Shown here piece after piece: positions 6,490 through 25,962 of a stretch of 37,362 nucleotides of DNA. A program made the position numbers and the translations under genes. Every line of letters starts with the position of its first letter. The stretch's first letter is position 1. This stretch comes from a virus. The stretch lies in the IMG/VR virus record IMGVR_UViG_3300045988_106398; one strand, given 5' to 3'. The notes below the pieces were generated by a model. It was not told the origin of the DNA. It was given only the letters and a program-made list of their open reading frames with translations, and made no database searches.

Positions 6490-9260
6490 TATATACTGTT
6501 CCTCCTTCTTGAAACTCCTTTTCTGCCTAATCCGGTATCCATAAGTGGCAATAATTCACTTGCCACGGTCTTTCCATTTAAAGTGCTTGTATGCTGCACT
6601 GTAACATTTCCCATAGCCTCGCAGATTCCTTGGATCAGCCGGTCATAATCGATTGGTGTTGTAGTGGTATTCGCATTTGCTCTTGCAGATTCTTTCGCAT
6701 ATTTCATAGAAATATCATGTGGAATAACCTGGGTTCCATTCGGTAGATATGTAAGCTCTCCCCTTCCGCCTTCATTCATTCGCGCAAATCCACCTTGCCA
6801 GTCCTCTGTACCATGCAGCAAATATGGAATCGTACCAATATTCACTCCCGGTATTTTATTAATCAAACCGATTGCTGCATTAATCCCGCCAATCACTCCA
6901 TTTACAAATCCTTTTACTTGTGACACCAATGCATCAACAGCCGAAGCAACACCGCTAAAAACACCGGATACAAACGATGTAAGCCCATTCCAAGCACTTT
7001 TTATTCCATTGAACACTCCTGTAATGTACCCGCCTACTTTATCCATAATAGAAGATACAATTGAGTAAACAGAATTAAATACATTCCCCACCGTTCCCGC
7101 TATCGTCGCTATCACACTCGACGCCACATTAATTGCATTTGATATTACTTTTGATATATTTGCGAAAATGTTCTGTACAAATGAAAATGCAGTGGAAAAC
7201 GTACTGATAATAACATCTAACACACCGCTCACCGCTCCTATTATTTTTCCAATAATAGAAATAATGGAAGCAATAATACTAGCTACAAAAGTCACAATCG
7301 GTGAAATTACCGATATAATCGTTGAAATAATACCGCCAATAAATGATACAATCGGTGAAATAGCCGAAATAATAGAGGCTATCACACTGATTACAACAGA
7401 AACAATGGATACCACCACAGATATAATATTTGTCAGCACCGGAACAATTGCTTGAATAACAGACATTACTACATTCATAATCGCAATCACTGCCGGCATT
7501 GCAGCCGTTACAATATTCATAATTACTTTAAGCACGGTCTGTATAATATTAATCACACTTGTTAAAAGCGGTACTAACGCACCGGACAATTGAGAAATCA
7601 TCGGTCCAACAGACGCAACTACATTTCCGATTAAAGATGCTATCTGTACCAAAAATGGAGCAACTTGATTTAGCAAATTCACGACAATCGGCAATGCCAT
7701 AGTCAGTACATCAATCACACTTCCAATTAACTGCGAACCAACCGTTACGATATCCCCAATTACTGGAGCCAAATTCGCCATCAAAGACTGAAAAGCCGGA
7801 AGCAACGAAGAAACGATTCCCCCTATCGTTGTACCAAGCGTCGTAAATACCGGAACCAAACTACTTCCTATCGTTGATACCAGACTAACAATCTGAGATC
7901 CAAAATTTTGAAATAACAAAAGTAACATTTTAATATGCGGTGCAATCAAACCAATCACCGTAGAAAATACATTTCCGAATCCCCGTATCCCTGATAAGCT
8001 TCCTAAAAATCCCTCCGAAAGTCCTGAAAAAAATCCAGATAGTGCATCTGATAGCACCCCTACTATTGTTTTTATTGTTGAAAACATACTTTGAAACGCT
8101 GGAAGGAAAGATTTTGCACCTTCAATAAATCCCTGAAATAAAGTTTCTGCCACAGGCCTAATTGCTTGTATAGCACTTTGTATTTTATCTCTCACAAAAT
8201 CCCATATCGCAGCCACCATATTTCGAAATGTTTCATTTGTATTTATCAAATATACAATCCCTGCTGCCAATGCTGCAATTGCCGTTATGGCAATTGTTAC
8301 CGGTGCTCCAATCATACCTATAACACCGGCTATTTTCCCGATACTACTTATAAGCGTACCAATGATTACTAAAGCCGGTCCTGCTACCGCTGCAACCGCT
8401 GCTATCTTTAATGCAATCTGCTGCACCTGTGGACTTGCATTTGCAAATGCATCTACCATTTCCGTTGCTTTCTGCACAAGCGGTGTCAACGTTGGAAGTA
8501 AATGTTGTCCAAGTGCAATATTCAGGTTATCTACTGCCCCTTGGAAAGTTCTCAAACTATTTGCCGTACCATCCGAAGTCCTCGCATAGTCCCCCTGTGC
8601 ATTTGCCGCCATTTCCATAACATAATTGTAGCGGAGCTGTACTTTTTCTGCCTGAGACATTTCTTTATATACTTTTCCTGTTCTAGAAGCAAATTCTTCA
8701 AGATTTGTCTCCGTCATCACAATGCCAAGTTGTTTCAGGCTTTCCGTTTCTCCGGTAAACACCCCGGCAAGGGCGGTCATAGCCTGATCTACACCTATAT
8801 TCTTAAAAGACGCCAAATCACCAGCTAACCCCGCAAGAGCTGTTGACATGTTTGCGGCTTCCGGTTGCGCCAATCCCATCGAGGTTGCCATATCTCCAAA
8901 TAAAGCAGTTGCCTCCAACGCCTGATTTTTTGAAAGTCCAAACTGCTTTGTTGCATTTTCCGCCCACGACGTAACTGCTTCTGAAGATTCCCCAAATGCA
9001 ACATCCACTTTATTGAGATTTTCATCAAAATCAGAGGCAGCGTTCACCATACTTTTCGCAGCCAGCGCAATTGGGGTTGATATTCCTAGAGATAACTTGG
9101 CACCAAACCCAGACAGTGAACTCCCTATACTATCTAGTTTAGACGAAATGCTCTTCATTCTTGTTTCAAACCTATCCGCTGCTTTCTGAGCAGTCGAAAA
9201 TGCTTTTTCAAATCCGCTACTATCACCTGTAATTTTGGCACTCAATGTATAGTCTGCCAT
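6489..9260 (-). CDS. Tail tape measure protein (TP901-type core)
   Basis: 923 aa, the longest gene, located after the chaperone pair. N-terminal TMP core (AANMSTALAGLAGDLASFKN). Long I/V/S/A-rich hydrophobic repeat region. Confidence 0.9.
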   Translation of the reverse strand: MADYTLSAKITGDSSGFEKAFSTAQKAADRFETRMKSISSKLDSIGSSLSGFGAKLSLGISTPIALAAKSMVNAASDFDENLNKVDVAFGESSEAVTSWAENATKQFGLSKNQALEATALFGDMATSMGLAQPEAANMSTALAGLAGDLASFKNIGVDQAMTALAGVFTGETESLKQLGIVMTETNLEEFASRTGKVYKEMSQAEKVQLRYNYVMEMAANAQGDYARTSDGTANSLRTFQGAVDNLNIALGQHLLPTLTPLVQKATEMVDAFANASPQVQQIALKIAAVAAVAGPALVIIGTLISSIGKIAGVIGMIGAPVTIAITAIAALAAGIVYLINTNETFRNMVAAIWDFVRDKIQSAIQAIRPVAETLFQGFIEGAKSFLPAFQSMFSTIKTIVGVLSDALSGFFSGLSEGFLGSLSGIRGFGNVFSTVIGLIAPHIKMLLLLFQNFGSQIVSLVSTIGSSLVPVFTTLGTTIGGIVSSLLPAFQSLMANLAPVIGDIVTVGSQLIGSVIDVLTMALPIVVNLLNQVAPFLVQIASLIGNVVASVGPMISQLSGALVPLLTSVINIIQTVLKVIMNIVTAAMPAVIAIMNVVMSVIQAIVPVLTNIISVVVSIVSVVISVIASIISAISPIVSFIGGIISTIISVISPIVTFVASIIASIISIIGKIIGAVSGVLDVIISTFSTAFSFVQNIFANISKVISNAINVASSVIATIAGTVGNVFNSVYSIVSSIMDKVGGYITGVFNGIKSAWNGLTSFVSGVFSGVASAVDALVSQVKGFVNGVIGGINAAIGLINKIPGVNIGTIPYLLHGTEDWQGGFARMNEGGRGELTYLPNGTQVIPHDISMKYAKESARANANTTTTPIDYDRLIQGICEAMGNVTVQHTSTLNGKTVASELLPLMDTGLGRKGVSRRRNSI

Positions 9261-14253: not shown

Positions 14254-14529
14254 TTATATATTTTTCAACCAATCTGCTACTTCCTCAACGTCAATCGCTC
14301 CTGTGTGGTTCATATACACCATCTCATCAGACAATAAAACTACCGCTGGCAATTTGTCTATCTGATATTTGTCTGCCACAAATGATTCGTCCTGCACGTT
14401 TACACGCTGTATTTTATCAATCCCGACTTTTTCCTCTAAAGGTTCAATAAACTGCTTTTCATAAAATCTACAGGGCGGACACCACGGAGCATGAAAAAAT
14501 AATAGTTTTTTCATAACTTTTCTCGTCAT
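14254..14529 (-). CDS. Thioredoxin-like protein (WCPPC active site)
   Basis: LLFFHAPWCPPCR ... LPAVVLL follows the thioredoxin-fold pattern. The start could instead be the second Met (MKKLLFF). Confidence 0.8.
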   Translation of the reverse strand: MTRKVMKKLLFFHAPWCPPCRFYEKQFIEPLEEKVGIDKIQRVNVQDESFVADKYQIDKLPAVVLLSDEMVYMNHTGAIDVEEVADWLKNI

Positions 14530-14721
14530 CTTCCTTACTTAAATACTATCTCACACAATCAGAATTTTTGTCTTTTTTCCCATTCCATATATTCTCTAGC
14601 TTCACTTAATGTCATTATCATCACTCCCAGTATAATCCAGTGGTACTATTACCATAATATTCCTCTGCTTCCTTTTGGTAAAACCGCTCCTATCTTTCTA
14701 ATTCAAACTACTGTTTCAACT

Positions 14722-14907
14722 CTAATCTGTAATATTTTTAATGTTATTTTGAGCAATATGCTTTTTATATGTCACTCCATTGTTACATATGGTTCCTTTG
14801 GTTTTAGGAGTATGCAATATTTCCTCAGGTATTCCTTTCGGATACGCATCACATACCATATTTTTTTTACAATTATCGCAATCCAAACAGTACGGTATTC
14901 TAATCAT
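14722..14907 (-). CDS. Small Cys-rich protein translationally coupled to the MuF-fusion gene (possible immunity/partner)
   Basis: The ATG overlaps the MuF TGA (ATGA), preceded by RBS AAAGGTGGA. CLDCDNC..(5)..C cluster. No family recognised. Confidence 0.55.
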   Translation of the reverse strand: MIRIPYCLDCDNCKKNMVCDAYPKGIPEEILHTPKTKGTICNNGVTYKKHIAQNNIKNITD

Positions 14908-16454
14908 TTCTTTTTCCACCTTTCTATGTAAATTTCAACCAACCTTCTTGCTTTATCCGGCACTTCTTCACCGTTTCTTATTTTTACAAAAGCCTCTGCT
15001 ATCGTTTCAAATCCATCCTTTGCATCATCAGAATATCCTGAAACTCCTGGAACATATTCCTTTTCAACAGTATTTAAAAAAGTCTCAAATTCCTCTGCGT
15101 CTTCAATATGTTGTCCTGTCATTACGTGTGCCATTTCGTGAATAATATGGTCTGTTATACTTTTTCCTGAAAAATAACCATATGCATAGGCTCTGGCAAC
15201 TATTTCATCAAACCCTGTAAAATCAAATCCACTATTTAAAACAAATATTGATTCATGTTTTCCATTATTATTCGCATATCTACATAGATAAGGAATATCC
15301 AAACGCGAAGTTCCCAAATCTTCTACCAACACCCATTTTAAATTCAACTCATATTCATTTTCTATTATATTAATACCCTTTTGCATATTTTCAATCATAT
15401 TAGGAGTAATACCAGTAGCCCGTCTAAGTTGTTCTGGAATTATTATTTTCTTTATCATACCATAGTCAACATTTTTTACAACCTTTAATCTATCAGATAT
15501 TTTCTTTCCTTCACCATTTCCATGACGTTTCTCATAATCTTCAACAAACTTCTCCCTATCCGTAACACTTGGTGTTGCGGTACAATGGCACCACGGGTGC
15601 ATAGGTGGAAAGTTTATTCCCGGCTTTCTTTCACCCCATTTGAAACGTTTCTCATGCAAATCATCACAAATATCCGACCAACCGGAACGCCTTGCTTTAT
15701 AGTGCTGAATACGGAACACATATTCCTCTGTGTCCTGCTCAAATGCCACTGCTCTTGCTTCATTTGATATAAATGTACCTTCTGTGTAAATCAGCCGATA
15801 TGCGTCATTTCTGGACACTTTCTCAAATCTCTGTCTTAACTTCGAAACAAGTTTGCTATAACTGTCACCACGGGCAAATCCCGCAGCAATATCCCTTCCC
15901 AAATATCGTGCCAGTTTCTGAATATTTCCCCATATTCGTTCACTGAAATCTTTTCCGTCATACCACTTTGCATTTACAATTTTTCGTATGATTTCCGAAT
16001 TTTCCGAGTAAAAGTTCTTGCCGTACCCCATTGTTTCTGCTACCTGATTAGCATTGCGTACAGCCTGTCTTACAAGATGCTCCCTGACCGTCTTAATATC
16101 GACTGCACCGATTTCCAACTGCTGCATAAGTATTGACATCTGTAATCCTTCAAGACGGTTTAGTTTATATATACTTTCCCGTATAGGAAGCATATCCGCA
16201 TACTCAGGATACAGTTGAGCAAAGTCCTGCATTCTTTTGATAAGTCGTTCCCTATCCGCATCGTCCAAGTTCTGCATCAACTTTCTGTACTCGATAACCT
16301 TGTCCTCACCATATATGGAATAATATGCTGCTATTTCTTTTTCTAACTTTCTGTATTCTGCACTATAAAAGGACGAGAGTTTTTTCTTTAATTTCTTCTC
16401 GTCCTTTTCCAATTCCTGATTCAGTTGTTTCTGTCTCTTTTCCCAGTAGTTCAT
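14904..16454 (-). CDS. Minor head protein (SPP1 gp7 / Mu F family) fused to a C-terminal HExxH metallopeptidase-like domain
   Basis: The MuF motif NFPPMHPWCHCT lies mid-protein. The C-terminal ~190 aa contain HIIHEMAHVM and a downstream ETIAEAF. Follows the portal gene. Confidence 0.8.
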   Translation of the reverse strand: MNYWEKRQKQLNQELEKDEKKLKKKLSSFYSAEYRKLEKEIAAYYSIYGEDKVIEYRKLMQNLDDADRERLIKRMQDFAQLYPEYADMLPIRESIYKLNRLEGLQMSILMQQLEIGAVDIKTVREHLVRQAVRNANQVAETMGYGKNFYSENSEIIRKIVNAKWYDGKDFSERIWGNIQKLARYLGRDIAAGFARGDSYSKLVSKLRQRFEKVSRNDAYRLIYTEGTFISNEARAVAFEQDTEEYVFRIQHYKARRSGWSDICDDLHEKRFKWGERKPGINFPPMHPWCHCTATPSVTDREKFVEDYEKRHGNGEGKKISDRLKVVKNVDYGMIKKIIIPEQLRRATGITPNMIENMQKGINIIENEYELNLKWVLVEDLGTSRLDIPYLCRYANNNGKHESIFVLNSGFDFTGFDEIVARAYAYGYFSGKSITDHIIHEMAHVMTGQHIEDAEEFETFLNTVEKEYVPGVSGYSDDAKDGFETIAEAFVKIRNGEEVPDKARRLVEIYIERWKKK

Positions 16455-17966
16455 CTACATTTCCCCATTCAAAATCGAACGTGCCTCTTCTCTGCTAATT
16501 CCTATTGCAGTTGAAATAAGTCTAATCGCCTGTCCTTCTGTCAAACTTCCTGCACTGTATTGCGACATAATAGCAATTAAACTTTGTGTCTGTGCTACGT
16601 TCAGTGCTTTCCCTTGTATTTCAGTCACCCCCTCTGTAATAGAAACTATATCCTCACTCTCTTCATCATCTCTGCCTGTCGGATAGTCTGTGTTATACCC
16701 TAGCAAATCCTGCTCGGCATCTATCTTTTCTATTTCCCCTTTCACATCTTCTACTGTTGAAAGTACCTTCAGTTGGGTTTCTTTACTTGTAATGCCTGCA
16801 AGATTTCCCACTATCTGTGATTCTTCCAACAAGTTGGCCGGAAAATTCGGTGTGAAAACATATTTTAATTTTACCCATGAATCCTTTGGAACTTTTGACC
16901 TAGGGTGGCTAAACAATACCTTGTACCGACGATTCATGCCTGACGTGAACTTTCTCTCCTTTGTCTTTTCCAAGTTACTCATAGCCTGCAGTTTATACTT
17001 CAATGAAATTCCTGAACTTGCACCAAAATTTTCATCAGAAATATTTGCCACCATTGATAATTGAAAAATCAATCTCTCTAATCTGTTAAGAAGATTTTCC
17101 TGTGTACCGTCACCGCTCGGCTTGTCCATAAATTCTACGATAATCTTATCCACTTCATCTCCCGAAAAGTTTACAACACGTTTATCGCGGATAAATTCAA
17201 GGTCGCCATCTTTTAATTCAGCACCAAGCACCTTCATATATGCATCTGCAAAATAATCTACATCATTCGCTTTTTCACTGATTGCATTATTATAGGCATT
17301 AATCATCGTCAATACTGGTTCAAATATACTCTGCCGTTCTGCATTCTCCACAAACTCTGTCGCAGGCACTCCCTCAAAATAATGCGATTCCCACTCACTT
17401 GTCCAAATATACCCTCCTGAAACTTGAAAATACCTAACCTCTGTCCCGTTAGATATACTTCCTCTCTCTGTTTTATTGTAATCTGTATAGTACCTTACAA
17501 AAAACTGTGGTCTTTCAATAATAGATTCATCAAATATCATAAATGCTTCTGTCGGATCAAGATAAGTGGTACACAGTTCTGCCTCTTCATCTGCATAATA
17601 CATCTCGTACCCTTTTCCATAAATATCACATATCTTGGACAACTCTGCGTTGTTGTCATCTTGGTCATTGTATTGATTAAGAAATTCCACATACTCTAAC
17701 AAAGATTTATCTTCTGACGTAATTCTAATCGGATTTCCCAAAAAGAACCCGTTCATTGTATCAACTATATATTTTGCAAAATTTGCTACAATACGATTAT
17801 CTGGTTTATAATCCGGTTTCTTTTTTCTATGCAAAATTTCATAATCACTTGTATAAGCGTCCTGTAATGGCTTGTATCTTTTGCTGACCATTTTCTTATG
17901 CCTGTCTACAAATTCAGCCAGTAATTCCAATGTAATCTCTGTACCTGCTGGTAATATAAACATCAA
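16455..17966 (-). CDS. Portal protein (SPP1 gp6-like)
   Basis: 503 aa directly after terL. The NRIVANFAKYIVDTMNGFFLGNPI motif is typical of SPP1-type portals. Confidence 0.85.
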   Translation of the reverse strand: MMFILPAGTEITLELLAEFVDRHKKMVSKRYKPLQDAYTSDYEILHRKKKPDYKPDNRIVANFAKYIVDTMNGFFLGNPIRITSEDKSLLEYVEFLNQYNDQDDNNAELSKICDIYGKGYEMYYADEEAELCTTYLDPTEAFMIFDESIIERPQFFVRYYTDYNKTERGSISNGTEVRYFQVSGGYIWTSEWESHYFEGVPATEFVENAERQSIFEPVLTMINAYNNAISEKANDVDYFADAYMKVLGAELKDGDLEFIRDKRVVNFSGDEVDKIIVEFMDKPSGDGTQENLLNRLERLIFQLSMVANISDENFGASSGISLKYKLQAMSNLEKTKERKFTSGMNRRYKVLFSHPRSKVPKDSWVKLKYVFTPNFPANLLEESQIVGNLAGITSKETQLKVLSTVEDVKGEIEKIDAEQDLLGYNTDYPTGRDDEESEDIVSITEGVTEIQGKALNVAQTQSLIAIMSQYSAGSLTEGQAIRLISTAIGISREEARSILNGEM

Positions 17967-19240
17967 ATCCCTCCTGTTATCTTTCTGTTCAATCCTGAAC
18001 CCTTTTTCTCTAATTTTCTTATCAGACTTGCTGCCGAGTCAGGACTATCATCATGTTCCGCAAACTCTGAATAGTCCAGTATCTCGTTAATATACTCCGG
18101 GTCTGTTTCTTCAAACCACACTATGTTCTTCCAGTGTTTACGCAGATACGTTGATATTTTCACAAATTTGTTCATGCTCTCATGATACCCATGCACCGGA
18201 AGGAACATTGTTTTCAACTCCTTCTTCAAATAGCCTTTATCTGCATTATCCTCGCATTCTATTGTTCCAAGCCTGAACCTTTCGTGATAAGCATCAATCT
18301 CCGTCAAACAGTCCTCTACGTGCCTTTCCCACCGTTTTCCAAATGCTGCTATACGTCCGTCCTGTAACTTGTGCATTGCCGTAAATGCTGTTGCGTCCTC
18401 TCCGCCATACGCAGCATCTATATGCGCAATTCCGTTATATAACAAACTTTCATCCTCCATAAATTGAGGAGACGTAAACATAGCGTTTTTATCAGCTATA
18501 TGTTTTAACTCATAATTTGCAGCAAACAAACTGTCTGACATTGAACATCTGATTTCTTCCAACTTTCCTCTGTCTATCAATCCTGTCGAATAACAATCAT
18601 ACCGTTTTACATTCGGCATGATGGAAATCGCATCTTCTTTGTGCCACGGTGTTCCGGTATTAATAAAACGTCCATGTCTATTACAGATGTTTTGTAGTTC
18701 CATGTACTGCACCTTTGTTCTCTCGCGTTCTGCTCTGCTGATTCTGTCTTTTAGATTAACAATATCATCTGTAACGACTATATCCGCATGTTTACCTGTA
18801 ATGGATGTTCCAATACCAAGTCCAAGTATCTGACTGACTCCTTTTGTGAATGTGCAGAGGTTTGTATGGATTTCTGCATTGTTCGATTTCAAAAAATGAA
18901 TATAACAGCCATACAAAGCATATGTGATCGACTGCATAACATCTGATGACAATATTTTTTGCGCCTGAACCATCACTTCTACGACATCCGTATCAGTTTT
19001 TCTGAAAAACATAACATTTTCATTTGGTCGTTCCACCGTATGTAATGCAAGAAACAACGATAAATCCGTCGTCTTATAACTGCCCCTGTGAGCAAGCAGC
19101 GTCTGGTCTTTCTTTTCATACAAAAATGACCGAAGCCACTCATTGTGTAGCCTGGTCAAATCCTTAAACCCTAACCAATGTCCTATCTTATAAGGCGTTT
19201 CCGTCAGTAGTGTTATCGCCTGTTGCTTTGTAATTCCCAA
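17963..19240 (-). CDS. terL: Terminase large subunit
   Basis: 425 aa between terS and the portal gene. ATPase-like and nuclease-like halves (GSYKTT..., ADIVVTDD...). Overlaps the terS 3' end. Confidence 0.8.
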   Translation of the reverse strand: MGITKQQAITLLTETPYKIGHWLGFKDLTRLHNEWLRSFLYEKKDQTLLAHRGSYKTTDLSLFLALHTVERPNENVMFFRKTDTDVVEVMVQAQKILSSDVMQSITYALYGCYIHFLKSNNAEIHTNLCTFTKGVSQILGLGIGTSITGKHADIVVTDDIVNLKDRISRAERERTKVQYMELQNICNRHGRFINTGTPWHKEDAISIMPNVKRYDCYSTGLIDRGKLEEIRCSMSDSLFAANYELKHIADKNAMFTSPQFMEDESLLYNGIAHIDAAYGGEDATAFTAMHKLQDGRIAAFGKRWERHVEDCLTEIDAYHERFRLGTIECEDNADKGYLKKELKTMFLPVHGYHESMNKFVKISTYLRKHWKNIVWFEETDPEYINEILDYSEFAEHDDSPDSAASLIRKLEKKGSGLNRKITGGI

Positions 19241-19736
19241 AATATTCTTCCATTTCTCTCACAGTGTCTGATGCAGGTGTCACCTTCATGTCCAATTTAT
19301 CATTCCACATACCTAAATGACGTCCTAACATTTCCAACGCCTTTTCTTTATCATTCAATTTGATTTCAATTCCATTAGCTCCCTCTTTGATTCCTGCGAT
19401 TGCTCCTATCTGCTCTTCTGACAGTTCTGTAGTTGGCTTCACCATAACCACGCTATTTGTACCATCAACTTTAATTTCTACATAATCTGTTGCCCTTGCA
19501 AAAGCAATCGAAGCCAACTCTTGAAGCACCATATCCTGTGTGATTTCCGTTCGCTTTTGGCGTTCGTTCATTCGATCTGAAATATACCCTGCAACGTTAG
19601 CATTTGTTAGCATTCTGCTTCCATTTGCCCTCGCTGTTTCATCTTTCTTCACGGATGGATATGCCGCGCGGTAAGCCCGTGTAGCATTCAAATCAATCAA
19701 GTATTCATCTGCAAATATTTTCTGTTTTTCTGTCAT
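19188..19736 (-). CDS. terS: Terminase small subunit (Terminase_2 type)
   Basis: MTEKQKIFADEYLIDLNATRAYRAAY is the classic terS N-terminus. Start reassigned to this Met, preceded by RBS GGAAGGTGGTG. The longer track ORF runs into the tRNA. Confidence 0.85.
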   Translation of the reverse strand: MTEKQKIFADEYLIDLNATRAYRAAYPSVKKDETARANGSRMLTNANVAGYISDRMNERQKRTEITQDMVLQELASIAFARATDYVEIKVDGTNSVVMVKPTTELSEEQIGAIAGIKEGANGIEIKLNDKEKALEMLGRHLGMWNDKLDMKVTPASDTVREMEEYFGNYKATGDNTTDGNAL

Positions 19737-19774
19737 ATGGCTCACCACCTTCCAATCTATCAATTTTCTATCTC

Positions 19775-19846
19775 TGGATACAACAGGAATCGAACCTGTG
19801 ACATATTCCCTACGAGTGAAGTGCTCTACCACTGAGCTATGTATCC
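19775..19846 (-). tRNA. tRNA-like gene, anticodon loop CUCGUAG (Thr-CGU) with a weak anticodon stem
   Basis: Acceptor GGATACA/TGTATCC, D arm GCTC-AGTGGTA-GAGC and T arm ACAGG-TTCGATT-CCTGT are all canonical. The anticodon stem has only 3 Watson-Crick pairs. No CCA is encoded. Confidence 0.75.
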
Positions 19847-19883
19847 ATATTTGGGTATTAGAAAAGACGCCCTAATGGACGCC

Positions 19884-20030
19884 TTACATTTGTCTCATCT
19901 TCACATCAACTGCCTCTTTCCTGACATTGTGATGCTGGTTCTGATTCTCCGGCTTTACCTTCTCAGTAATGCTGTTGAATTCTTCATTGCTTTTCTTTCT
20001 GTTTAACTTCTCTTGATCCTTCTTATCCAT
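19884..20030 (-). CDS. Small highly charged hypothetical protein (48 aa, MDKKDQEKLNRKKSNEEF...)
   Basis: My own translation. RBS AGGTGAGGAA lies immediately upstream. Located between the cassette terminator and the tRNA. Confidence 0.4.
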   Translation of the reverse strand: MDKKDQEKLNRKKSNEEFNSITEKVKPENQNQHHNVRKEAVDVKMRQM

Positions 20031-20079
20031 TTCCTCACCTCGGATATAGTATGTGAGGAATGAGATGTTTTATGTATTG

Positions 20080-20100
20080 AAAAAGCACCCCGAAGGGTGC
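20080..20100 (-). terminator. Intrinsic terminator ending the two-gene cassette (GCACCC-UUCG-GGGUGC-UUUUU)
   Basis: Perfect 6-bp GC stem, UUCG tetraloop and U5. It starts 4 nt after the stop at 20105. Confidence 0.85.
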
Positions 20101-20104
20101 ATAT

Positions 20105-20749
20105 TTAATTGTTTGGTTCTTCATCTTTCTCTTTTTCTATAATTTCCATTACTCTTGTACCCGCGTGCATTTTGAAAAGCTGAAAAATGTTAAAAATAAA
20201 ACTTTTTATCTCCCACATTATATAAAAAGCGAAAAAGAAATATAAATTTAACAATAGTATTGCTAAAGCATTGTTATATATTCTTCTTTCAAAACATACA
20301 AAATCATTTGGAACAGCTCCTAAGCACAATGACAAAAACAAATTCAAAAGTATAAAAAACAGGCACAGCATCATCAAATTTACAAACTCCTCATTAGTCT
20401 CTTGCAATTTGCTTTTGTCTTTACCATTTTTTTCAGTTTTGCTATTCAACATACGAATCAATAAGTCATCATTGACCAAAGCTTGAAAAAACACATATCC
20501 TGTAAATACAATTCCAAATATCGCCAATAATATAGCATTAATTTTTTCTACTGAATTTTCAAAAAGATCAATCGTATCTTCAGAATAGCCAATTAGCAAT
20601 GCCGGAATCAATGCTACTAAGCAAATAAACAGGAATTTTTTAATCTCCTTTTTTGTGGGTTTTAAGCTCTCGAAAGATTCCAGCATTATTTGATCAGATG
20701 ATTGAGGTTCAAGCATTTTTTGTAATAAATCAATGTCGATTTTTTTCAT
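20105..20749 (-). CDS. Four-TM membrane protein of unknown family (cassette gene 2, candidate effector)
   Basis: Start reassigned to MKKIDIDLL, preceded by RBS GGAGGGTGAG. Hydrophobic helices FLFICLVALIPALLIGY, INAILLAIFGIVFTGYVFFQALV, FVNLMMLCLFFILLNLFLSLCLGAV and ALAILLLNLYFFFAFYIMW. Confidence 0.75.
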   Translation of the reverse strand: MKKIDIDLLQKMLEPQSSDQIMLESFESLKPTKKEIKKFLFICLVALIPALLIGYSEDTIDLFENSVEKINAILLAIFGIVFTGYVFFQALVNDDLLIRMLNSKTEKNGKDKSKLQETNEEFVNLMMLCLFFILLNLFLSLCLGAVPNDFVCFERRIYNNALAILLLNLYFFFAFYIMWEIKSFIFNIFQLFKMHAGTRVMEIIEKEKDEEPNN

Positions 20750-20772
20750 TCTCTCACCCTCCACATCCAATA

Positions 20773-21744
20773 CTATTTTTTAATAAAACCTATTATTTTA
20801 CTGCTGTTTCTAGAATATATTTCATTGTTATTTTCACTCACATATGTAATGCTTTCCAATTTTTTACCTTCTTCAATAATCTGTGATATTTCGTTTCTTA
20901 AATTCCCTTGTCGAATATCCAAATTCATACTCTCTGAAATTCTTTCATTTTTTATTCTTGTCTTTTTCTTCTTTCCGTCTTCAGTTCTATAGGTCACCTT
21001 GAATATCGGCTCTACAATCCCGTTAGATTTTTCAACTAAATCAATCACTTCTTCTATATTTCCAGGTGATTTTAAAATCAAATCTGTTTTCTTACAGCCC
21101 ACTGCTCTTCTGACATCATTTGATATATCTCCTAATATCCCACCAAAATCAATATCTCCATTTAATGGATAAAATCTTAAGCACAGTTCATTAATTTTTT
21201 CCACTTCTTTTAATGATTCTACCAATTTTTTCCTCATTGGAATACCCACTACATTTAATATAGGTATCGGAAGTTCTTTTTTATTTTTTCCCTTTAAGCT
21301 CTGATTTTCCTCTTTAACAAATCTATTCAAAAAATCTTTCGCTGTTGCCTTAAAATTTTGAATTGTCGGACTTCCCTTTTGATTTTTAACAAATAGCATT
21401 CTATGATTCTTTAAATAAATCACAAATATCGAGAATGGTGCAGACGGGTATTTTTCATCTTTTTCAATTATATCCCAATTCTCATCCACATCAGATTTTA
21501 CTTCTAAGACGGTTCTTTTAACTATTAAACCTGTTAAAACATATTCTCCATCTCTTGCTTCTTCTAAATTAATTTCCGTAAAAAAGAACTCAGAATCTCC
21601 TGCTTTTTTAATATACTTTGCAGTGAGTGCCGGCATAAAAATCGCATCAAAGTAATTTAGCAATGGTTCTTCACTTCCATTCTCGCCATAAAAAACCAAA
21701 TTAAAGTTTGCAACCATACTACTTTTCATGTTCTCTTGTTTCAT
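20773..21744 (-). CDS. 323-aa soluble protein of unknown family (cassette gene 1, candidate sensor)
   Basis: Start reassigned to MKQENMK, preceded by RBS GGAGGAAAG. I could recognise no Walker A, HExxH, HNH or other catalytic motif. AT-rich codon usage. Confidence 0.75.
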   Translation of the reverse strand: MKQENMKSSMVANFNLVFYGENGSEEPLLNYFDAIFMPALTAKYIKKAGDSEFFFTEINLEEARDGEYVLTGLIVKRTVLEVKSDVDENWDIIEKDEKYPSAPFSIFVIYLKNHRMLFVKNQKGSPTIQNFKATAKDFLNRFVKEENQSLKGKNKKELPIPILNVVGIPMRKKLVESLKEVEKINELCLRFYPLNGDIDFGGILGDISNDVRRAVGCKKTDLILKSPGNIEEVIDLVEKSNGIVEPIFKVTYRTEDGKKKKTRIKNERISESMNLDIRQGNLRNEISQIIEEGKKLESITYVSENNNEIYSRNSSKIIGFIKK

Positions 21745-21852
21745 ATTCTTTCCTCCACACACTTACATAAACAAAACCCTATAAACATAATACAAGATTT
21801 TTCATCATCATTCAACATGGTGTGACATTTATTTCACGTATGAAGTAAATCC

Positions 21853-21881
21853 ATTATAGAACGTCTGTTCTTTTTTGTCTA
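21853..21881 (-). promoter_or_regulatory. Sigma-70-type promoter of the two-gene cassette (TAGACA-17-TATAAT)
   Basis: On the minus strand, the -35 is TAGACA (21876..21881) and the -10 is TATAAT (21853..21858), with an exact 17-nt spacer. Confidence 0.65.
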
Positions 21882-21894
21882 TTGACAAAATTCA

Positions 21895-21929
21895 CAAAAA
21901 AGACACCTCACAATCTCTGCAAGGCGTCT
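21895..21929 (-). terminator. Intrinsic terminator after the late regulator gene
   Basis: Minus-strand AGACGCCU / AGGUGUCU form an 8-bp stem (one G-U pair) with a 13-nt loop, followed by UUUUUUGUG. Confidence 0.7.
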
Positions 21930-21992
21930 CTCTCAATGTATGTGTGTTTTGGGAAGAAAAGTCTAAAGTTAATTATAACTTTTCTAGAATAA

Positions 21993-22433
21993 TTATAGCA
22001 CACTATTTTTGTGCTTTGTGTGCAAATTGAGATAATTCGTAATTTTTTTCGATATTACACTCCGTTCCAATCCGATAACCTCCGCAACCTCTCTCTGCTT
22101 TTTCCCTTCTACATACAGCAATTCAAAAATCTCCTTAATCTCTACATCCTCTATCCCGTCAAGAAACTCTTCCACCTCTTGAATCTCTGCTACTACCTGC
22201 AGGCGTTCCGCTTCTTTTTTCCTGATTTGCTTGTTTATTCGCTCCTGCTCATCCGGATCAGGTATCATCACAGATGTCCTAACTTCCGTATAGGGAAAAT
22301 CTTTACTTGACCCACGAACCTTTCCCATCACTTCTCCTGCCGGCTCAGTCTCACAGAGTTCTGATATCCTCTCTTCTATACGCTTAAGTCTTGCTTTGTT
22401 CGGTCTGTACTTTTTCAGTTTTAACTTGTCCAC
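21993..22433 (-). CDS. Late gene transcriptional regulator (RinA/ArpU/sigma-region-4-like HTH)
   Basis: The C-terminal segment KQREVAEVIGLERSVISKKI is an HTH, and GSSKDFPYTEV is a typical mid-motif. Position is just upstream of the packaging genes. Start tentatively at the GTG after GGGAGGTGG; an ATG at 22463 is the alternative. Confidence 0.6.
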   Translation of the reverse strand: MDKLKLKKYRPNKARLKRIEERISELCETEPAGEVMGKVRGSSKDFPYTEVRTSVMIPDPDEQERINKQIRKKEAERLQVVAEIQEVEEFLDGIEDVEIKEIFELLYVEGKKQREVAEVIGLERSVISKKITNYLNLHTKHKNSVL

Positions 22434-22644
22434 CGGCACCACCTCCCTTAAGTCTTTCCTCATAAAAATCCGCCACACTACTATACTCTGCCAACTGTTT
22501 CCTCTCCTTGCGATGACTGCATGTTGTGTATGCTTTCCGCTGCATGTGCCACTTTGCGTTTTCACTCGGTCCTCGCTTTATAATATCATCAAAGGTCTTT
22601 TCTTCGTCCAGCTTTGCTTGTTTCCGTGTTCTTCCATAGCTCAA
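22384..22644 (-). CDS. Hypothetical basic protein (TTG start), 3' end overlaps the regulator gene
   Basis: RBS AGAAGGTGA lies before the TTG. The C-terminal ~17 codons overlap the regulator start in another frame. Coding status is uncertain. Confidence 0.35.
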   Translation of the reverse strand: MSYGRTRKQAKLDEEKTFDDIIKRGPSENAKWHMQRKAYTTCSHRKERKQLAEYSSVADFYEERLKGGGAGGQVKTEKVQTEQSKT

Positions 22645-22778
22645 ATTATCACCTTCTTTAATTTTTATATTTTTTTAAATAGCGTTAGATTTTTCAAGAT
22701 CGCGTGTATATATAGTAGAGGAGCCTATAATACTGTGAGGTCGGGGCAACGGCACTTAAGACCGTGCTCCGCTGTCCT

Positions 22779-23654
22779 CTATAAAAAGTCCTCTATGCTC
22801 ATCTGACCTGGTATGTTTTCATCTTCCATCCACCAAAGGAACACTTCTTCTCCAGACTTCCATTTGCATTCTTTTCCGCGTCTTTTACGCTCTTCCAACA
22901 TCCTGTCAAATGCGTGGATATACAGTTTCTTGTATTCCGGAAAATCCGCAAATTCCTTGTAACGTTTCTTGCTTGCCATTGGGCAACCAATACATCCAAC
23001 TCGATCATATCCACGTTTGTACAAATCGCATACTTCTATATGTTCTGATTCTATGTACTGCCAAATATCTGAATGCGTCCAGTCGATAATTGGATTTACA
23101 ACCATTTTATTCTGTTGCATACAAAGCTCACCCATTCGTCTCTTTGATCCGTTATCGTTCATAAGCATAATAGTAGAAAAAGTCTCATTCTCATTGTAGC
23201 TTTTCCCAAGCTTTTCAAATTCTCCTCTTTCCGCTCTTTTATTCGATTCATCCCACCTTACTCCTGTTGCGATGTATCTATTTTGGCATCCTGTCTCTTT
23301 CAAGACAGAGCGGCAATATCTCACCATTCTTGTAGGTGGCATAAGTTTTTGTGGTATCAATTTCCACATACTTGTTGGTTTTCCTTTGTATGTCGGCATT
23401 TCGATTTCGCATTTAATTCCTTGTAATTCCAATTTTTTTAATACTTCTCTGATATGGTATACTGTCTGTGGCGCATCTGCCGTAGTATGGCTGTTATGTA
23501 CCTCAAACGGGATTCCGGATCTCTTAAATAACTCAAGTATTACATCCGAATCTTTCCCACCGGAATATGTACAGATAAGAGGCTTTCCGTAATGATGCAA
23601 ACTCATTTCAGATGCCATCTTGATTCGTTCTATCGATTTTTGCTCTTTATCCAT
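22779..23654 (-). CDS. PAPS reductase / PP-loop family protein (IbrA/DndC-like)
   Basis: The PP-loop motif CTYSGGKDSD lies near the N-terminus, with a C-terminal Cys cluster (VGCIGCPMA). Confidence 0.8.
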   Translation of the reverse strand: MDKEQKSIERIKMASEMSLHHYGKPLICTYSGGKDSDVILELFKRSGIPFEVHNSHTTADAPQTVYHIREVLKKLELQGIKCEIEMPTYKGKPTSMWKLIPQKLMPPTRMVRYCRSVLKETGCQNRYIATGVRWDESNKRAERGEFEKLGKSYNENETFSTIMLMNDNGSKRRMGELCMQQNKMVVNPIIDWTHSDIWQYIESEHIEVCDLYKRGYDRVGCIGCPMASKKRYKEFADFPEYKKLYIHAFDRMLEERKRRGKECKWKSGEEVFLWWMEDENIPGQMSIEDFL

Positions 23655-24198: not shown

Positions 24199-24482
24199 TG
24201 AATCACTCCTTTTCGTTTAAGCCACTGTTTGACACGTTCCGTCCCTATGTATTCCATAATTTCCTCGTCAATTGCATCCATGTGGTAAACTGGATATTCT
24301 TTTTCAGGCTTCTCCCATTCATCTGCCGTACAATCAAAAATCATCACAAATTTATATCCTGTCCCATAATGACTATACAGCCACTCATGGATATTCTGAG
24401 GGTTTGCATCTTTTCCAGATACGCGAATATGAGGGTAAATTCCATATCTGTCTACCTTTTCTTCTTGATTTACTTTCATCAC
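24195..24482 (-). CDS. Hypothetical protein
   Basis: 95-aa ORF, coupled to its neighbours by overlaps. No motif recognised. Confidence 0.55.
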   Translation of the reverse strand: MMKVNQEEKVDRYGIYPHIRVSGKDANPQNIHEWLYSHYGTGYKFVMIFDCTADEWEKPEKEYPVYHMDAIDEEIMEYIGTERVKQWLKRKGVIQ

Positions 24483-25036
24483 TCCACCTCCAACAAATCT
24501 GCATTATCAAAAATATCCTTTTCTCGTGCTTTAACTGTACTCCAATCACAATCGAGTTCTTTTGCTATTTTGTTAATGCTATATCCCTTATCTAGCAACT
24601 CTTTAACATCGCTGATTGAAACATCTTTTCTGTGGAAAGGTTGTCTCGTTCCTTTTCTTGCATGATTCATTTCTAAGAGTCTATCCATCATCTTTTGAGT
24701 AATCTTTTTACCTTTATTATGATTACTGTTATGAACAGAATTTAATACAACAGACAAATTATTTTTAGAAGCATTTAATCTGTTTTCATCAATGTGATGT
24801 ACCGAAAATTCTGTGGGTATTTTAGAATCCAACCAATACATCATTAATAATCTATGAATATGTATTTTATCTTTTCCGATACTTACAGCAGGATATTTCC
24901 CATGCATATAAATATGTTTAACTGAAGTAACTGGTGAATCCGAGTACCATAAAATAGCATTTTCTAATTCTTTATAATCTACAATTGCTTCACAATCATT
25001 TACAAAGTTAATTTTCTTCTGTTTCTTTACCGTCAT
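24479..25036 (-). CDS. HNH homing endonuclease (HNH_3 type) with C-terminal HTH
   Basis: VHHIDENRLNASKNNL..LNSVHNSNH plus YSINKIAKELDCDWSTVKAR. RBS GGAGGTTTAA. Confidence 0.8.
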   Translation of the reverse strand: MTVKKQKKINFVNDCEAIVDYKELENAILWYSDSPVTSVKHIYMHGKYPAVSIGKDKIHIHRLLMMYWLDSKIPTEFSVHHIDENRLNASKNNLSVVLNSVHNSNHNKGKKITQKMMDRLLEMNHARKGTRQPFHRKDVSISDVKELLDKGYSINKIAKELDCDWSTVKAREKDIFDNADLLEVE

Positions 25037-25464: not shown

Positions 25465-25962
25465 CTAATCTTTCATTCCTAATCTTCTGCAAACAGTGTT
25501 ATATCCACAATTTAGTTTTTCAGCAATTTGGTTGATTGTTAACCCTTTGTTCCTAAGAGAAATCACTGTTTCTTTTGTAACATCACTTCTCGAAATAATA
25601 TGTCGCATCCTGTTTCCAAAATTTCTTTTATACTCTTCTGAAACATATTGAACTAAATTATGTTCTTTTGTATGTAACGAATTTTTAATTACTTGAAGAT
25701 TAGAAATATTATTATTTAATTTATTTCCATCAATATGGTGAACGTGAATTTCTGAATCGAAATTAAATCCAACAATATATTTCCCAATTATTCTATGTAC
25801 CGACACCTTGTCATGCTTTATTGAAATTCCAGCATATCCACGATAAAGATAAATTTTGTATTCGTCTTTGGGTGTGATATTTCTTCTACTACATTCTTCT
25901 TTTATTGCTTTTTCTAAAATTGAATAATCTACTATGCAGTTACATGCATTTTCAAATTTCAT
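25465..25962 (-). CDS. HNH homing endonuclease (HNH_3 type) with C-terminal HTH, paralog of 24479..25036
   Basis: VHHIDGNKLNNNISNLQVIKNSLHTKEH plus LTINQIAEKLNCGYNTVCRRL. RBS GGAGGTTTAG. Confidence 0.8.
   Translation of the reverse strand: MKFENACNCIVDYSILEKAIKEECSRRNITPKDEYKIYLYRGYAGISIKHDKVSVHRIIGKYIVGFNFDSEIHVHHIDGNKLNNNISNLQVIKNSLHTKEHNLVQYVSEEYKRNFGNRMRHIISRSDVTKETVISLRNKGLTINQIAEKLNCGYNTVCRRLGMKD

Follow-up and report, generated by a model that had tools for sequence, protein, structure and literature searches.

The 37,362-nucleotide (nt) stretch of DNA analysed here (IMG/VR virus record IMGVR_UViG_3300045988_106398; hereafter the window) is a whole siphovirus-type prophage of a gut Firmicute, of Lachnospiraceae type. 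Between its late regulator and its small terminase gene, at the head of the late operon, lies a cassette of two co-oriented genes, which encode a soluble protein of 323 amino acids (aa) (gene 1) and a 214-aa membrane protein with four transmembrane (TM) helices (gene 2). We propose that this cassette is, with fair likelihood, a phage-exclusion (abortive-infection) module of the RexAB type that the prophage carries as a moron. The pair is most likely a distant relative of RexA and RexB of phage lambda, unrecognizable by sequence, and thus falls within an established kind of system rather than forming a new one. We base the assignment on the match of gene 1 to the RexA fold, on the four-TM partner, on the gene order and on distant relatives that lie next to CI-type repressors. 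RexAB is the oldest known abortive-infection system, and its trigger and mechanism are still unsettled.

The structure of the gene 1 protein was modelled by AlphaFold2 with 48 homologues as input (predicted local distance difference test, pLDDT, 84.6; predicted TM-score, pTM, 0.85). In the model, a seven-strand N-terminal sheet flanked by helices is followed by a central alpha/beta domain and a helical C-terminal part. Its secondary structure agrees with the published plan of RexA, in which a split globular domain is joined with a dimerisation domain. When the model was compared by Foldseek with a PDB library current to April 2026, lambda RexA was the sole significant match (8twq_B, E 1.7e-7; 8twq_A, E 3.2e-6; both with probability 1.00), every other entry having an E-value of 6e-3 or higher. 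The alignment spans the whole length of gene 1 (339 alignment columns), and Foldseek thus finds in it the two-domain fold of RexA, at a low TM-score of 0.29-0.32. Among the viral models of BFVD, the gene 1 model comes closest to uncharacterised proteins of gut viromes (E 1e-12 to 1e-10, TM-score up to 0.57), and a viral RdgC-type "recombination-associated protein" matches at E 6e-3. The latter fits the published relation between RexA and RdgC (PMC11077077).

At the level of sequence, neither gene 1 nor gene 2 gave anything significant in Pfam, PHROGs, NCBIfam or PADLOC. The same holds for family scans of four close homologues, eight distant representatives, the two Klebsiella proteins described below and 77 members of the gene 1 family. 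Faint matches to TCAD3, Dam, DUF4064 and YobI were dismissed, as they lie far below the cut-offs, and searches of PDB sequences with gene 1 and with alignments A1, A3 and A4 returned chance matches only (ribosomal protein S8, sarcosine oxidase, BST2). Lambda RexA itself scores 1e-97 with Pfam and 9e-110 with PADLOC, and by sequence profile gene 1 does not belong to RexA, nor gene 2 to RexB (PF15968 and the PADLOC RexB model). The PADLOC hidden Markov models of RexA and RexB detect lambda and miss the validated Rex-like proteins Butters gp30 and CarolAnn gp44; the negative PADLOC result is therefore uninformative. Because validated Rex-like systems are equally divergent, the negative family scans do not argue against assignment to the Rex type. 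In the literature, Rex-like proteins are tied together by weak HHpred matches to DUF4747 (PMC6426596, PMC6426606, PMC7542560).

The gene 1 family comprises 489 clusters at 90% identity and 654 clusters at 50% identity. Its conserved motifs are APFSxFxIYLKNHRM..NQKGSP and FYPLNGDxD, and its product in the window is mildly basic (computed isoelectric point 8.5). Ten residues (N13, N15, P103, S105, F107, L111, N113, H114, P126 and N195) are nearly invariant in 77 family members whose identity is otherwise as low as about 25%. Such a conserved polar and aromatic cluster suggests a specific binding pocket or a catalytic one.

The gene 2 protein, for which 85 relatives were collected, has hydrophobic helices at about 38-58, 70-92, 121-146 and 159-181, according to hydropathy and to its AlphaFold2 model (pLDDT 84.4). 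The family is marked by the motifs FGIVFTGYxFFQAL in the second TM helix, KSKLQETNExF in the central cytoplasmic loop and KSFIFNIFQLF in a helix that follows the fourth TM helix. The central loop is the most conserved part of the protein. In a fold search, no BFVD entry matched gene 2 significantly. The two genes form an obligate pair: when all retrieved loci were searched by hmmsearch with both profiles, every complete gene 1 locus had a gene 2 homologue 8-42 nt downstream, the only exceptions being two pseudogenised copies, one fragment and one contig end. In distant branches the gene 2-type partners diverge together with gene 1. A small, co-oriented four-TM protein is thus encoded directly downstream of the soluble one, as in RexAB-type systems. 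A role of gene 2 as a holin or in lysis was considered and rejected, because the endolysin gene is about 19 kb away and the pair is also found outside phages.

The layout of lambda is reproduced by distant relatives. In the Klebsiella P2-like phage 4LV2017, the CI gene is followed after 2 nt by gp02 (349 aa), then after 1 nt by an open reading frame (ORF) of 201 aa with four TM helices (L013:6025-6630, plus strand, corresponding to about 1244..1849 on the minus strand of NC_047818.1), and then by an integrase gene. The gp02 protein matches the gene 1 profile with a probability of 98.7% (E 3.9e-16). The match of the 201-aa ORF to the gene 2 profile is weak (hhalign E 1.1e-4; hmmsearch E 2.4e-6 in a small local set). 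In the record of 4LV2017, both this ORF and the cI-rexA-rexB-like operon as such are unannotated. A second example comes from a metagenome locus (L057), where a repressor with HTH_3 and Peptidase_S24 domains is followed, 21 nt further, by a 349-aa homologue of gene 1 and, after another 19 nt, by the start of the partner gene, which the contig end cuts at 134 aa. Two other loci with the same 349-aa protein (L058 and L059) have the partner complete, at 203 aa; the L058 partner is again a four-TM protein, with an E-value of 4.9e-31 against the gene 2 profile. These CI-adjacent relatives reproduce the cI-rexA-rexB arrangement. Among cultured phages, tblastn with gene 1 found the Klebsiella 4LV2017 group only, and the CI-adjacent 349-aa homologue found no match.

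The cassette is an autonomous, horizontally mobile accessory cargo in a prophage hotspot. The window was compared with relatives that have the same small terminase and another cargo (L046, L047, L049, L050 and L053). Blastn homology stops at 21886 and restarts at 19884, the downstream flank being 99.9% identical, and these break-points define the swapped unit as a segment of 2,001 bp (Table 1). In the same slot, L048, L052 and L054 carry the gene 1/gene 2 pair with a 48-aa ORF, L046 and L053 a 64-aa gene with a 162-aa DUF2335 gene, L047 and L050 a split version of the DUF2335 cargo, L049 a 268-aa protein (4059-4865) with a weak match to Abi_alpha, and L051 insertion sequence (IS) elements. PADLOC recognises none of the alternative inserts. 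In unrelated prophages the pair precedes at least four other terminase types. It was also found inside a tail module (after a protein of 1050-1160 aa and before DUF6711), between two HicAB modules, adjoining IS21 and a group II intron, and in a non-phage chromosomal defence island. The GC content of the cassette stays at 0.27-0.33 regardless of that of the flanks (0.32-0.51), and it moves with its own promoter and terminator. Genome matches fall into Lachnospiraceae and other Clostridia (Dorea, Sporofaciens, Roseburia, Faecalimonas, Oribacterium, Allofournierella). The varied contexts, the swapping of cargo and the constantly low GC rule out a role in the virion or in packaging and support a defence-type cargo. 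For gene 1, such a role is also contradicted by phages that have 99.9%-identical packaging genes and no cassette.

Since the swapped unit was defined against cassette-less relatives, it also contains the 48-aa ORF mentioned above. This ORF has a flank-like GC content of 0.38, stands outside the AT-rich cassette and was seen solely in the lineage of the window phage (L048, L052, L054). It has no family match and may be no gene at all. We rejected it as a third component, because it is missing from all other cassettes.

Several features of the cassette had been described in an earlier reading of the window (the original prediction). Two minus-strand ORFs with strong Shine-Dalgarno (SD) sequences and a gap of 23 nt were found as it had described them. 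Its impression of an AT-rich block was confirmed by measurement: GC is 0.29-0.32 over 20001-22000 as against 0.39-0.42 on either side (0.300 in gene 1 and 0.287 in gene 2; 0.388 in the left flank and 0.395 in the right). The near-consensus promoter it had pointed out is the best promoter-like site within 19000-23000. The prediction had also placed the pair between two intrinsic terminators. Both hairpins are real and fold far better than shuffled sequences, in a region with six terminator-like sites versus 1.6 expected, and a GC-rich hairpin with a T run is present 3´ of gene 2 in most other cassettes. The upstream hairpin, however, lies inside the region homologous to cassette-less relatives and so belongs to the conserved flank, not to the insert. 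Finally, the four hydrophobic helices of gene 2 stood, while its cytoplasmic head is about 37 aa long instead of about 45. An Rfam scan of the region returned a tRNA only, with no regulatory RNA in the cassette leader.

Gene 1 is preceded by two promoters (P1 and P2, Table 1). The arrangement of P1, with its -35 element, box and -10 element, is also present upstream of diverged cassettes (L001, L025, L040). The spacer of P1 is filled by a palindrome, AGAACAGACGTTCT (21871..21858), whose core, at 21859..21870, is the only occurrence of GAAC-N4-GTTC in the whole window. This core is the LexA operator of Bacillus and Clostridium (PMC4234289). Members of a Gram-positive LexA regulon are recognised by a GAAC-N4-GTTC/T operator that overlaps a promoter, and by its sequence the cassette has one. 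Of 30 unique upstream regions of cassettes, 4 have an exact box, at a background of one per 351,690 nt; with up to one mismatch allowed, the number rises to 8, most of these boxes sharing one position within the distal promoter. One of the boxes, GAACAAATGTTTG, has the same sequence as the core of the lexA and recA operators in C. difficile (PMC4234289). P2 is closer to the gene, its -10 element ending 42 nt ahead of the gene 1 ATG, and its block is conserved in the alignment of upstream regions of diverged cassettes. A promoter with at least 9 of 12 consensus positions and a -10 element ending 25-70 nt before the ATG is found in 24 of 29 unique cassettes versus 13% of shuffles. Most cassettes carry solely this LexA-independent proximal promoter.

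Because the LexA box lies in P1, this promoter is predicted to be SOS-inducible, and we infer that its transcription is repressed by LexA and released in the SOS response. The weaker P2 probably provides basal expression in the lysogen. The combination of a distal promoter bearing a LexA box with a conserved proximal one is a new finding on regulation of the cassette. SOS-linked regulation of a Rex-type system has a precedent in DUF4747/CarolAnn operons, which occur under the DNA-damage regulators CapK/CapS (PMC13373217). As in RexAB-type systems, the pair is carried by a temperate phage and is set up for expression in the lysogen: the window has an integrase and a repressor module, the cassette has P1, P2 and a terminator, and the CI-adjacent homologues begin 2-21 nt after the repressor gene.

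We suggest the following course of events, drawn by analogy with lambda, Sbash, CarolAnn and Pseudomonas putida as models. The gene 1 protein would be a cytoplasmic, two-domain, RexA-like sensor, probably a dimer, which binds DNA or a complex of DNA with a phage protein. The gene 2 protein would reside in the inner membrane by its four TM helices, with both termini and the conserved central loop facing the cytoplasm. Basal expression from P2 would keep both proteins present in the lysogen, and their amount might rise through P1 upon SOS induction, be it by DNA damage, phage attack or induction of the prophage. Infection by another phage would activate the gene 1 protein, which could then engage the gene 2 protein at its cytoplasmic loop and C-terminal helix. 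This would open or disrupt the membrane, membrane potential and ATP would collapse, and the infection would abort.

The likeness to lambda RexA/RexB (PF15969/PF15968; 8TWQ) lies in two adjacent co-oriented genes, with a soluble protein first and a small four-TM protein second, in carriage by a prophage, and in the distant relatives directly downstream of CI-type repressors. The differences are equally apparent. No sequence similarity is detectable for either gene, the window proteins are larger (323 vs 279 aa and 214 vs 144 aa), and the host is a Firmicute, whereas that of lambda is an enterobacterium. Moreover, the window pair is not beside a repressor; it occupies a late-region hotspot and has promoters of its own, one of them with a LexA box. 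Gene 2 has its four-TM plan and long central loop in common with lambda RexB, Butters gp31 and CarolAnn gp43.

Further counterparts are found in actinophages. Sbash gp30/gp31 and CarolAnn gp44/gp43 also combine a cytosolic with a four-TM protein, are sequence orphans, and were recognised as Rex-like only through weak or structural signals (PMC6426596, PMC6426606). Like the window cassette, the Sbash genes have their own lysogenic promoter and stand beside virion (tail) genes (PMC6426596); the central cytoplasmic loop of the Sbash membrane protein is functionally important, and its counterpart in gene 2 is the part conserved best. Butters gp30/gp31 (PMC7542560) resembles our pair in its two-gene architecture, in having a weak DUF4747 link only and in being missed by the PADLOC RexA and RexB models. 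It differs in that its cytosolic protein is the effector, restrained by the membrane protein (PMC12894663). The roles may be reversed in this manner in the window pair as well. Neither CarolAnn gp44 nor Butters gp30 is similar in sequence to gene 1. For Sbash and CarolAnn, defence was shown by experiment and the triggers are known; for the window family, defence is a prediction. In P. putida, overexpression of the A protein of RexABpp (PP_5643/PP_5644) leads to B-dependent growth arrest and membrane damage (PMC12894663). This system was assigned to the Rex type on grounds similar to those used here, although RexApp, unlike the window family, retains an HHpred match to RexA (98%). For RexBpp, a ring of five subunits (pentamer) has been modelled.

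Several results weigh against a Rex-type assignment. The Foldseek match of gene 1 to RexA has, besides its low TM-score, a root-mean-square deviation of 13.6 A, and it could be domain-wise or at fold level only. The RexA crystal form is described as closed, its two domains being connected by a hinge and a swivel loop; presumably, the low score of our model reflects a different angle between domains. The Pfam profiles of RexA, RexB and DUF4747 (PF15969, PF15968, PF15931) match none of 77 members of the gene 1 family. The window protein and these members also lack any match to PF15931 at E <= 1; faint precomputed matches to it exist in just 13 of 120 listed homologues. Comparison of the family profile by hhalign with lambda RexA, with a 23-member RexA alignment, with Butters gp30 and with CarolAnn gp44 gave probabilities below 1% in all cases. 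The invariant Asn/His/Ser cluster of gene 1 (N13, N15, S105, N113, H114, N195) has no counterpart described for RexA in the literature cited here. Gene 2 has no detectable similarity to RexB (hhalign against lambda RexB 0.9%; none in Pfam or PADLOC); the membrane partners of Butters and CarolAnn likewise share no sequence similarity with RexB or with one another. The presence of four TM helices is a weak criterion. Because roles are reversed in Butters (PMC12894663), the mechanism is not uniform even within the Rex kind.

These points, together with the fact that defence-type contexts are silent on mechanism, leave room for a two-gene anti-phage system whose membrane effector works unlike Rex, either in the manner of Kiwa or by a superinfection exclusion that blocks entry of DNA. 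Gene 1 would then share with RexA only an RdgC-like DNA-binding fold, which agrees with the low TM-score, the lack of a sequence link to any Rex protein and the polar cluster. The size of gene 2 (well above that of RexB), its extra cytoplasmic head and its own conserved motifs could be explained in the same way. Kiwa consists of a four-TM protein and a cytosolic protein of about 310-320 aa acting on DNA, and in its gene order kwaA precedes kwaB. Identity with Kiwa was rejected: Pfam and PADLOC scans gave no DUF4868, KwaA or KwaB match, nor any other PADLOC match, and the window order of soluble before TM protein is that of rexA-rexB and the opposite of kwaA-kwaB. No Kiwa structure is among the 50 PDB matches listed, the library not having been checked for holding one. 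With RexA as the sole significant match in the PDB and a CI-adjacent layout that copies lambda, we regard a different effector as rather unlikely. The same polar cluster and the LexA box may also be read within the RexA fold. The pair would then be a system wired to the SOS response of the host, in which the Asn/His/Ser pocket of gene 1 binds a ligand or is catalytic. It would sense a defined signal of DNA damage or of phage, or act during prophage induction, instead of being a simple lambda-type switch, and it would be the dominant Rex-type module of prophages of human-gut Firmicutes. We consider such a diverged function unlikely too.

Another explanation is that the pair serves the life cycle of the prophage itself, as an SOS-induced module that aids commitment to the lytic pathway or protects the induced cell. 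The model for this is lambda, where RexA biases the switch in favour of lytic growth and RexB is proposed to keep the induced phage from excluding itself. The cassette stands at the head of the late operon, the LexA box lies in its strongest promoter in about a quarter of cassettes, and the host prophage has an ImmR/ImmA-type module (helix-turn-helix, HTH, protein and M78 peptidase). Modules of the ImmR/ImmA type are typically SOS-responsive. The action of lambda RexA on the bistable switch does not depend on RexB (PMC11077077). Yet the cassette is dispensable for the phage cycle, since near-identical phages do without it and carry unrelated cargo. It also occurs in unrelated phages with differing switches and once in a chromosomal defence island outside any phage, and most cassettes have the LexA-independent promoter only. 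A role in the life cycle is thus quite improbable. It is more improbable still that the pair is a selfish addiction module akin to toxin-antitoxin systems, or another moron that confers no phage resistance, such as a checked membrane toxin or a host-fitness factor. Obligate pairing of a membrane with a soluble protein does resemble some toxin-antitoxin-type pairs, one copy lies beside HicAB modules, and the Butters membrane protein sequesters a toxic cytosolic partner (PMC12894663). The proteins nevertheless have no similarity to known toxin or antitoxin families, gene 1 matches the fold of RexA, and the repeated defence contexts and hotspot behaviour fit a defence cargo better.

With a RexAB-type exclusion module as our preferred reading, the functional part of the original prediction can be judged as well. 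Its accessory cassette in a prophage hotspot is now seen as swapped cargo in varied contexts. Co-occurrence of the genes elsewhere, which it had proposed as a test, holds for every complete locus, including those in unrelated phages and the defence island. A sensor coupled to a membrane effector of defence is supported by context. Homology of gene 1 to virion or packaging proteins, which would have spoken against it, did not arise, and the PADLOC scan it called for remained empty for both proteins, with the reservation given above. The prediction recognised no motif in gene 1, which is true of families in Pfam, PHROGs, NCBIfam and PADLOC and does not extend to its fold. The claim of a novel system, of no nameable family, did not survive Foldseek analysis and the reproduced RexAB layout, and neither did the analogy to Kiwa. 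Expression from the repressed prophage may be provided by P2 at a basal level, while P1, from which it had been deduced, is predicted to respond to SOS.

Further features of the window are collected in Table 1. On the minus strand, the order includes the large terminase (TerL), the small terminase (TerS), the cassette, the late regulator and a PAPS-reductase-like gene; the late regulator is a called gene, in a form of 156 aa, in L054. The plus strand at the right end encodes an HTH repressor, an M78 ImmA-type peptidase, a 513-aa T5orf172 protein and an integrase. A tRNA-Thr gene sits between the cargo slot and TerS. A longer, GTG-started ORF of TerS (19188..19832) overlaps it; as the tRNA gene occupies this place, the true start of TerS is the ATG at 19736. 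The same 182-aa TerS is recorded, as an exact copy, in 2,593 blocks of the collection.

Table 1. Features of the cassette and of the surrounding prophage (positions in the window)
Feature	Position	Strand	Remarks
Gene 1, 323-aa soluble protein	20773..21744	minus	ATG at 21744, SD GGAGGA
Gene 2, 214-aa four-TM membrane protein	20105..20749	minus	SD GGAGGG
Distal promoter P1, TAGACA-17-TATAAT	21853..21881	minus	11/12 consensus positions
Palindrome AGAAC-N4-GTTCT, Gram-positive LexA (Cheo) box	21858..21871		fills P1 spacer, abuts -10
Proximal promoter P2, TTGAAT-17-TATTAT	21787..21815	minus	9/12 consensus positions
Cassette intrinsic terminator, GCACCC-UUCG-GGGUGC-U5	20080..20100	minus	hairpin and U run at 20100..20085; -11.8 kcal/mol, z -3.7
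Terminator of late-regulator gene (3´ end)	21895..21935	minus	-22.1 kcal/mol, z -5.7
Swappable cargo segment, 2,001 bp	19885..21885		between late regulator and tRNA-Thr/TerS; blastn vs relatives
48-aa basic ORF	19884..20030	minus	own SD; inside swapped segment, beyond cassette terminator
Endolysin	219..1262	minus	window family scans
Tape-measure-size gene	6489..9260	minus	
Mu-F-like protein (head gene)	14904..16454	minus	
Portal-sized ORF	16455..17966	minus	near-identical L046 homologue matches SPP1_portal
Small terminase TerS, 182 aa	19188..19736	minus	Terminase_2, E 8e-40
tRNA-Thr (anticodon CGU)	19774..19847	minus	Rfam tRNA, 63.4 bits; ARAGORN
Late transcriptional regulator	21993..22463	minus	phrog_36, E 7.9e-13; weak Sigma70_r4

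Some of the remaining genes deserve a comment. The 513-aa protein has a C-terminal T5orf172/MUG113 domain; its gene (34325..35866, plus strand) is oriented like that of the repressor and is flanked by the genes for the ImmA-type peptidase and the integrase, in an AT-rich region with a GC content of 0.29-0.34. It is a candidate for a second accessory or defence gene expressed in the lysogen. In the early/replication region, two similar genes with HNH_3 and HTH_7 domains (24479..25036 and 25465..25962, both on the minus strand), resembling homing endonucleases, lie in local AT-rich patches with GC of about 0.29-0.30. A thioredoxin gene (14254..14529, minus strand) adjoins a stretch of low GC (0.31-0.32 over 14501-15500) next to the Mu-F-like head gene, and a gene with a PAPS-reductase domain (22779..23654, minus strand) is located upstream of the late regulator. 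Both of the latter genes are kept in relatives of the window phage.

RexAB-type systems are a described kind (PMC6426596, PMC6426606, PMC7542560, PMC11077077, PMC12894663). A paper of January 2026 counted only five described Rex-like systems, all of them from Proteobacteria or Actinobacteria and none from Firmicutes (PMC12894663), and we found no description of the gene 1/gene 2 family in the literature. Our verdict is that the pair represents a large new Firmicute clade (654 clusters at 50% identity) of known RexAB-type systems, with phage exclusion as its predicted function.

Taken as a whole, the assignment, if it holds, would add hundreds of sequence clusters to the Rex-like systems, in a family that is invisible to Pfam, PADLOC and PHROGs. 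Its hosts are mostly gut Lachnospiraceae and other Clostridia, with one branch in Klebsiella P2-like phages. The slot between the regulator and tRNA-Thr/TerS of this very abundant gut prophage is a hotspot of defence cargo, which can be mined for further systems. Both proteins are compact and well conserved, with candidate interaction motifs in the KSKLQETNExF loop and the C-terminal helix of gene 2, and offer material for work on the mechanism. Through its LexA box, the distal promoter offers a direct way to test whether a Rex-type system of Firmicutes is tied to the SOS response.

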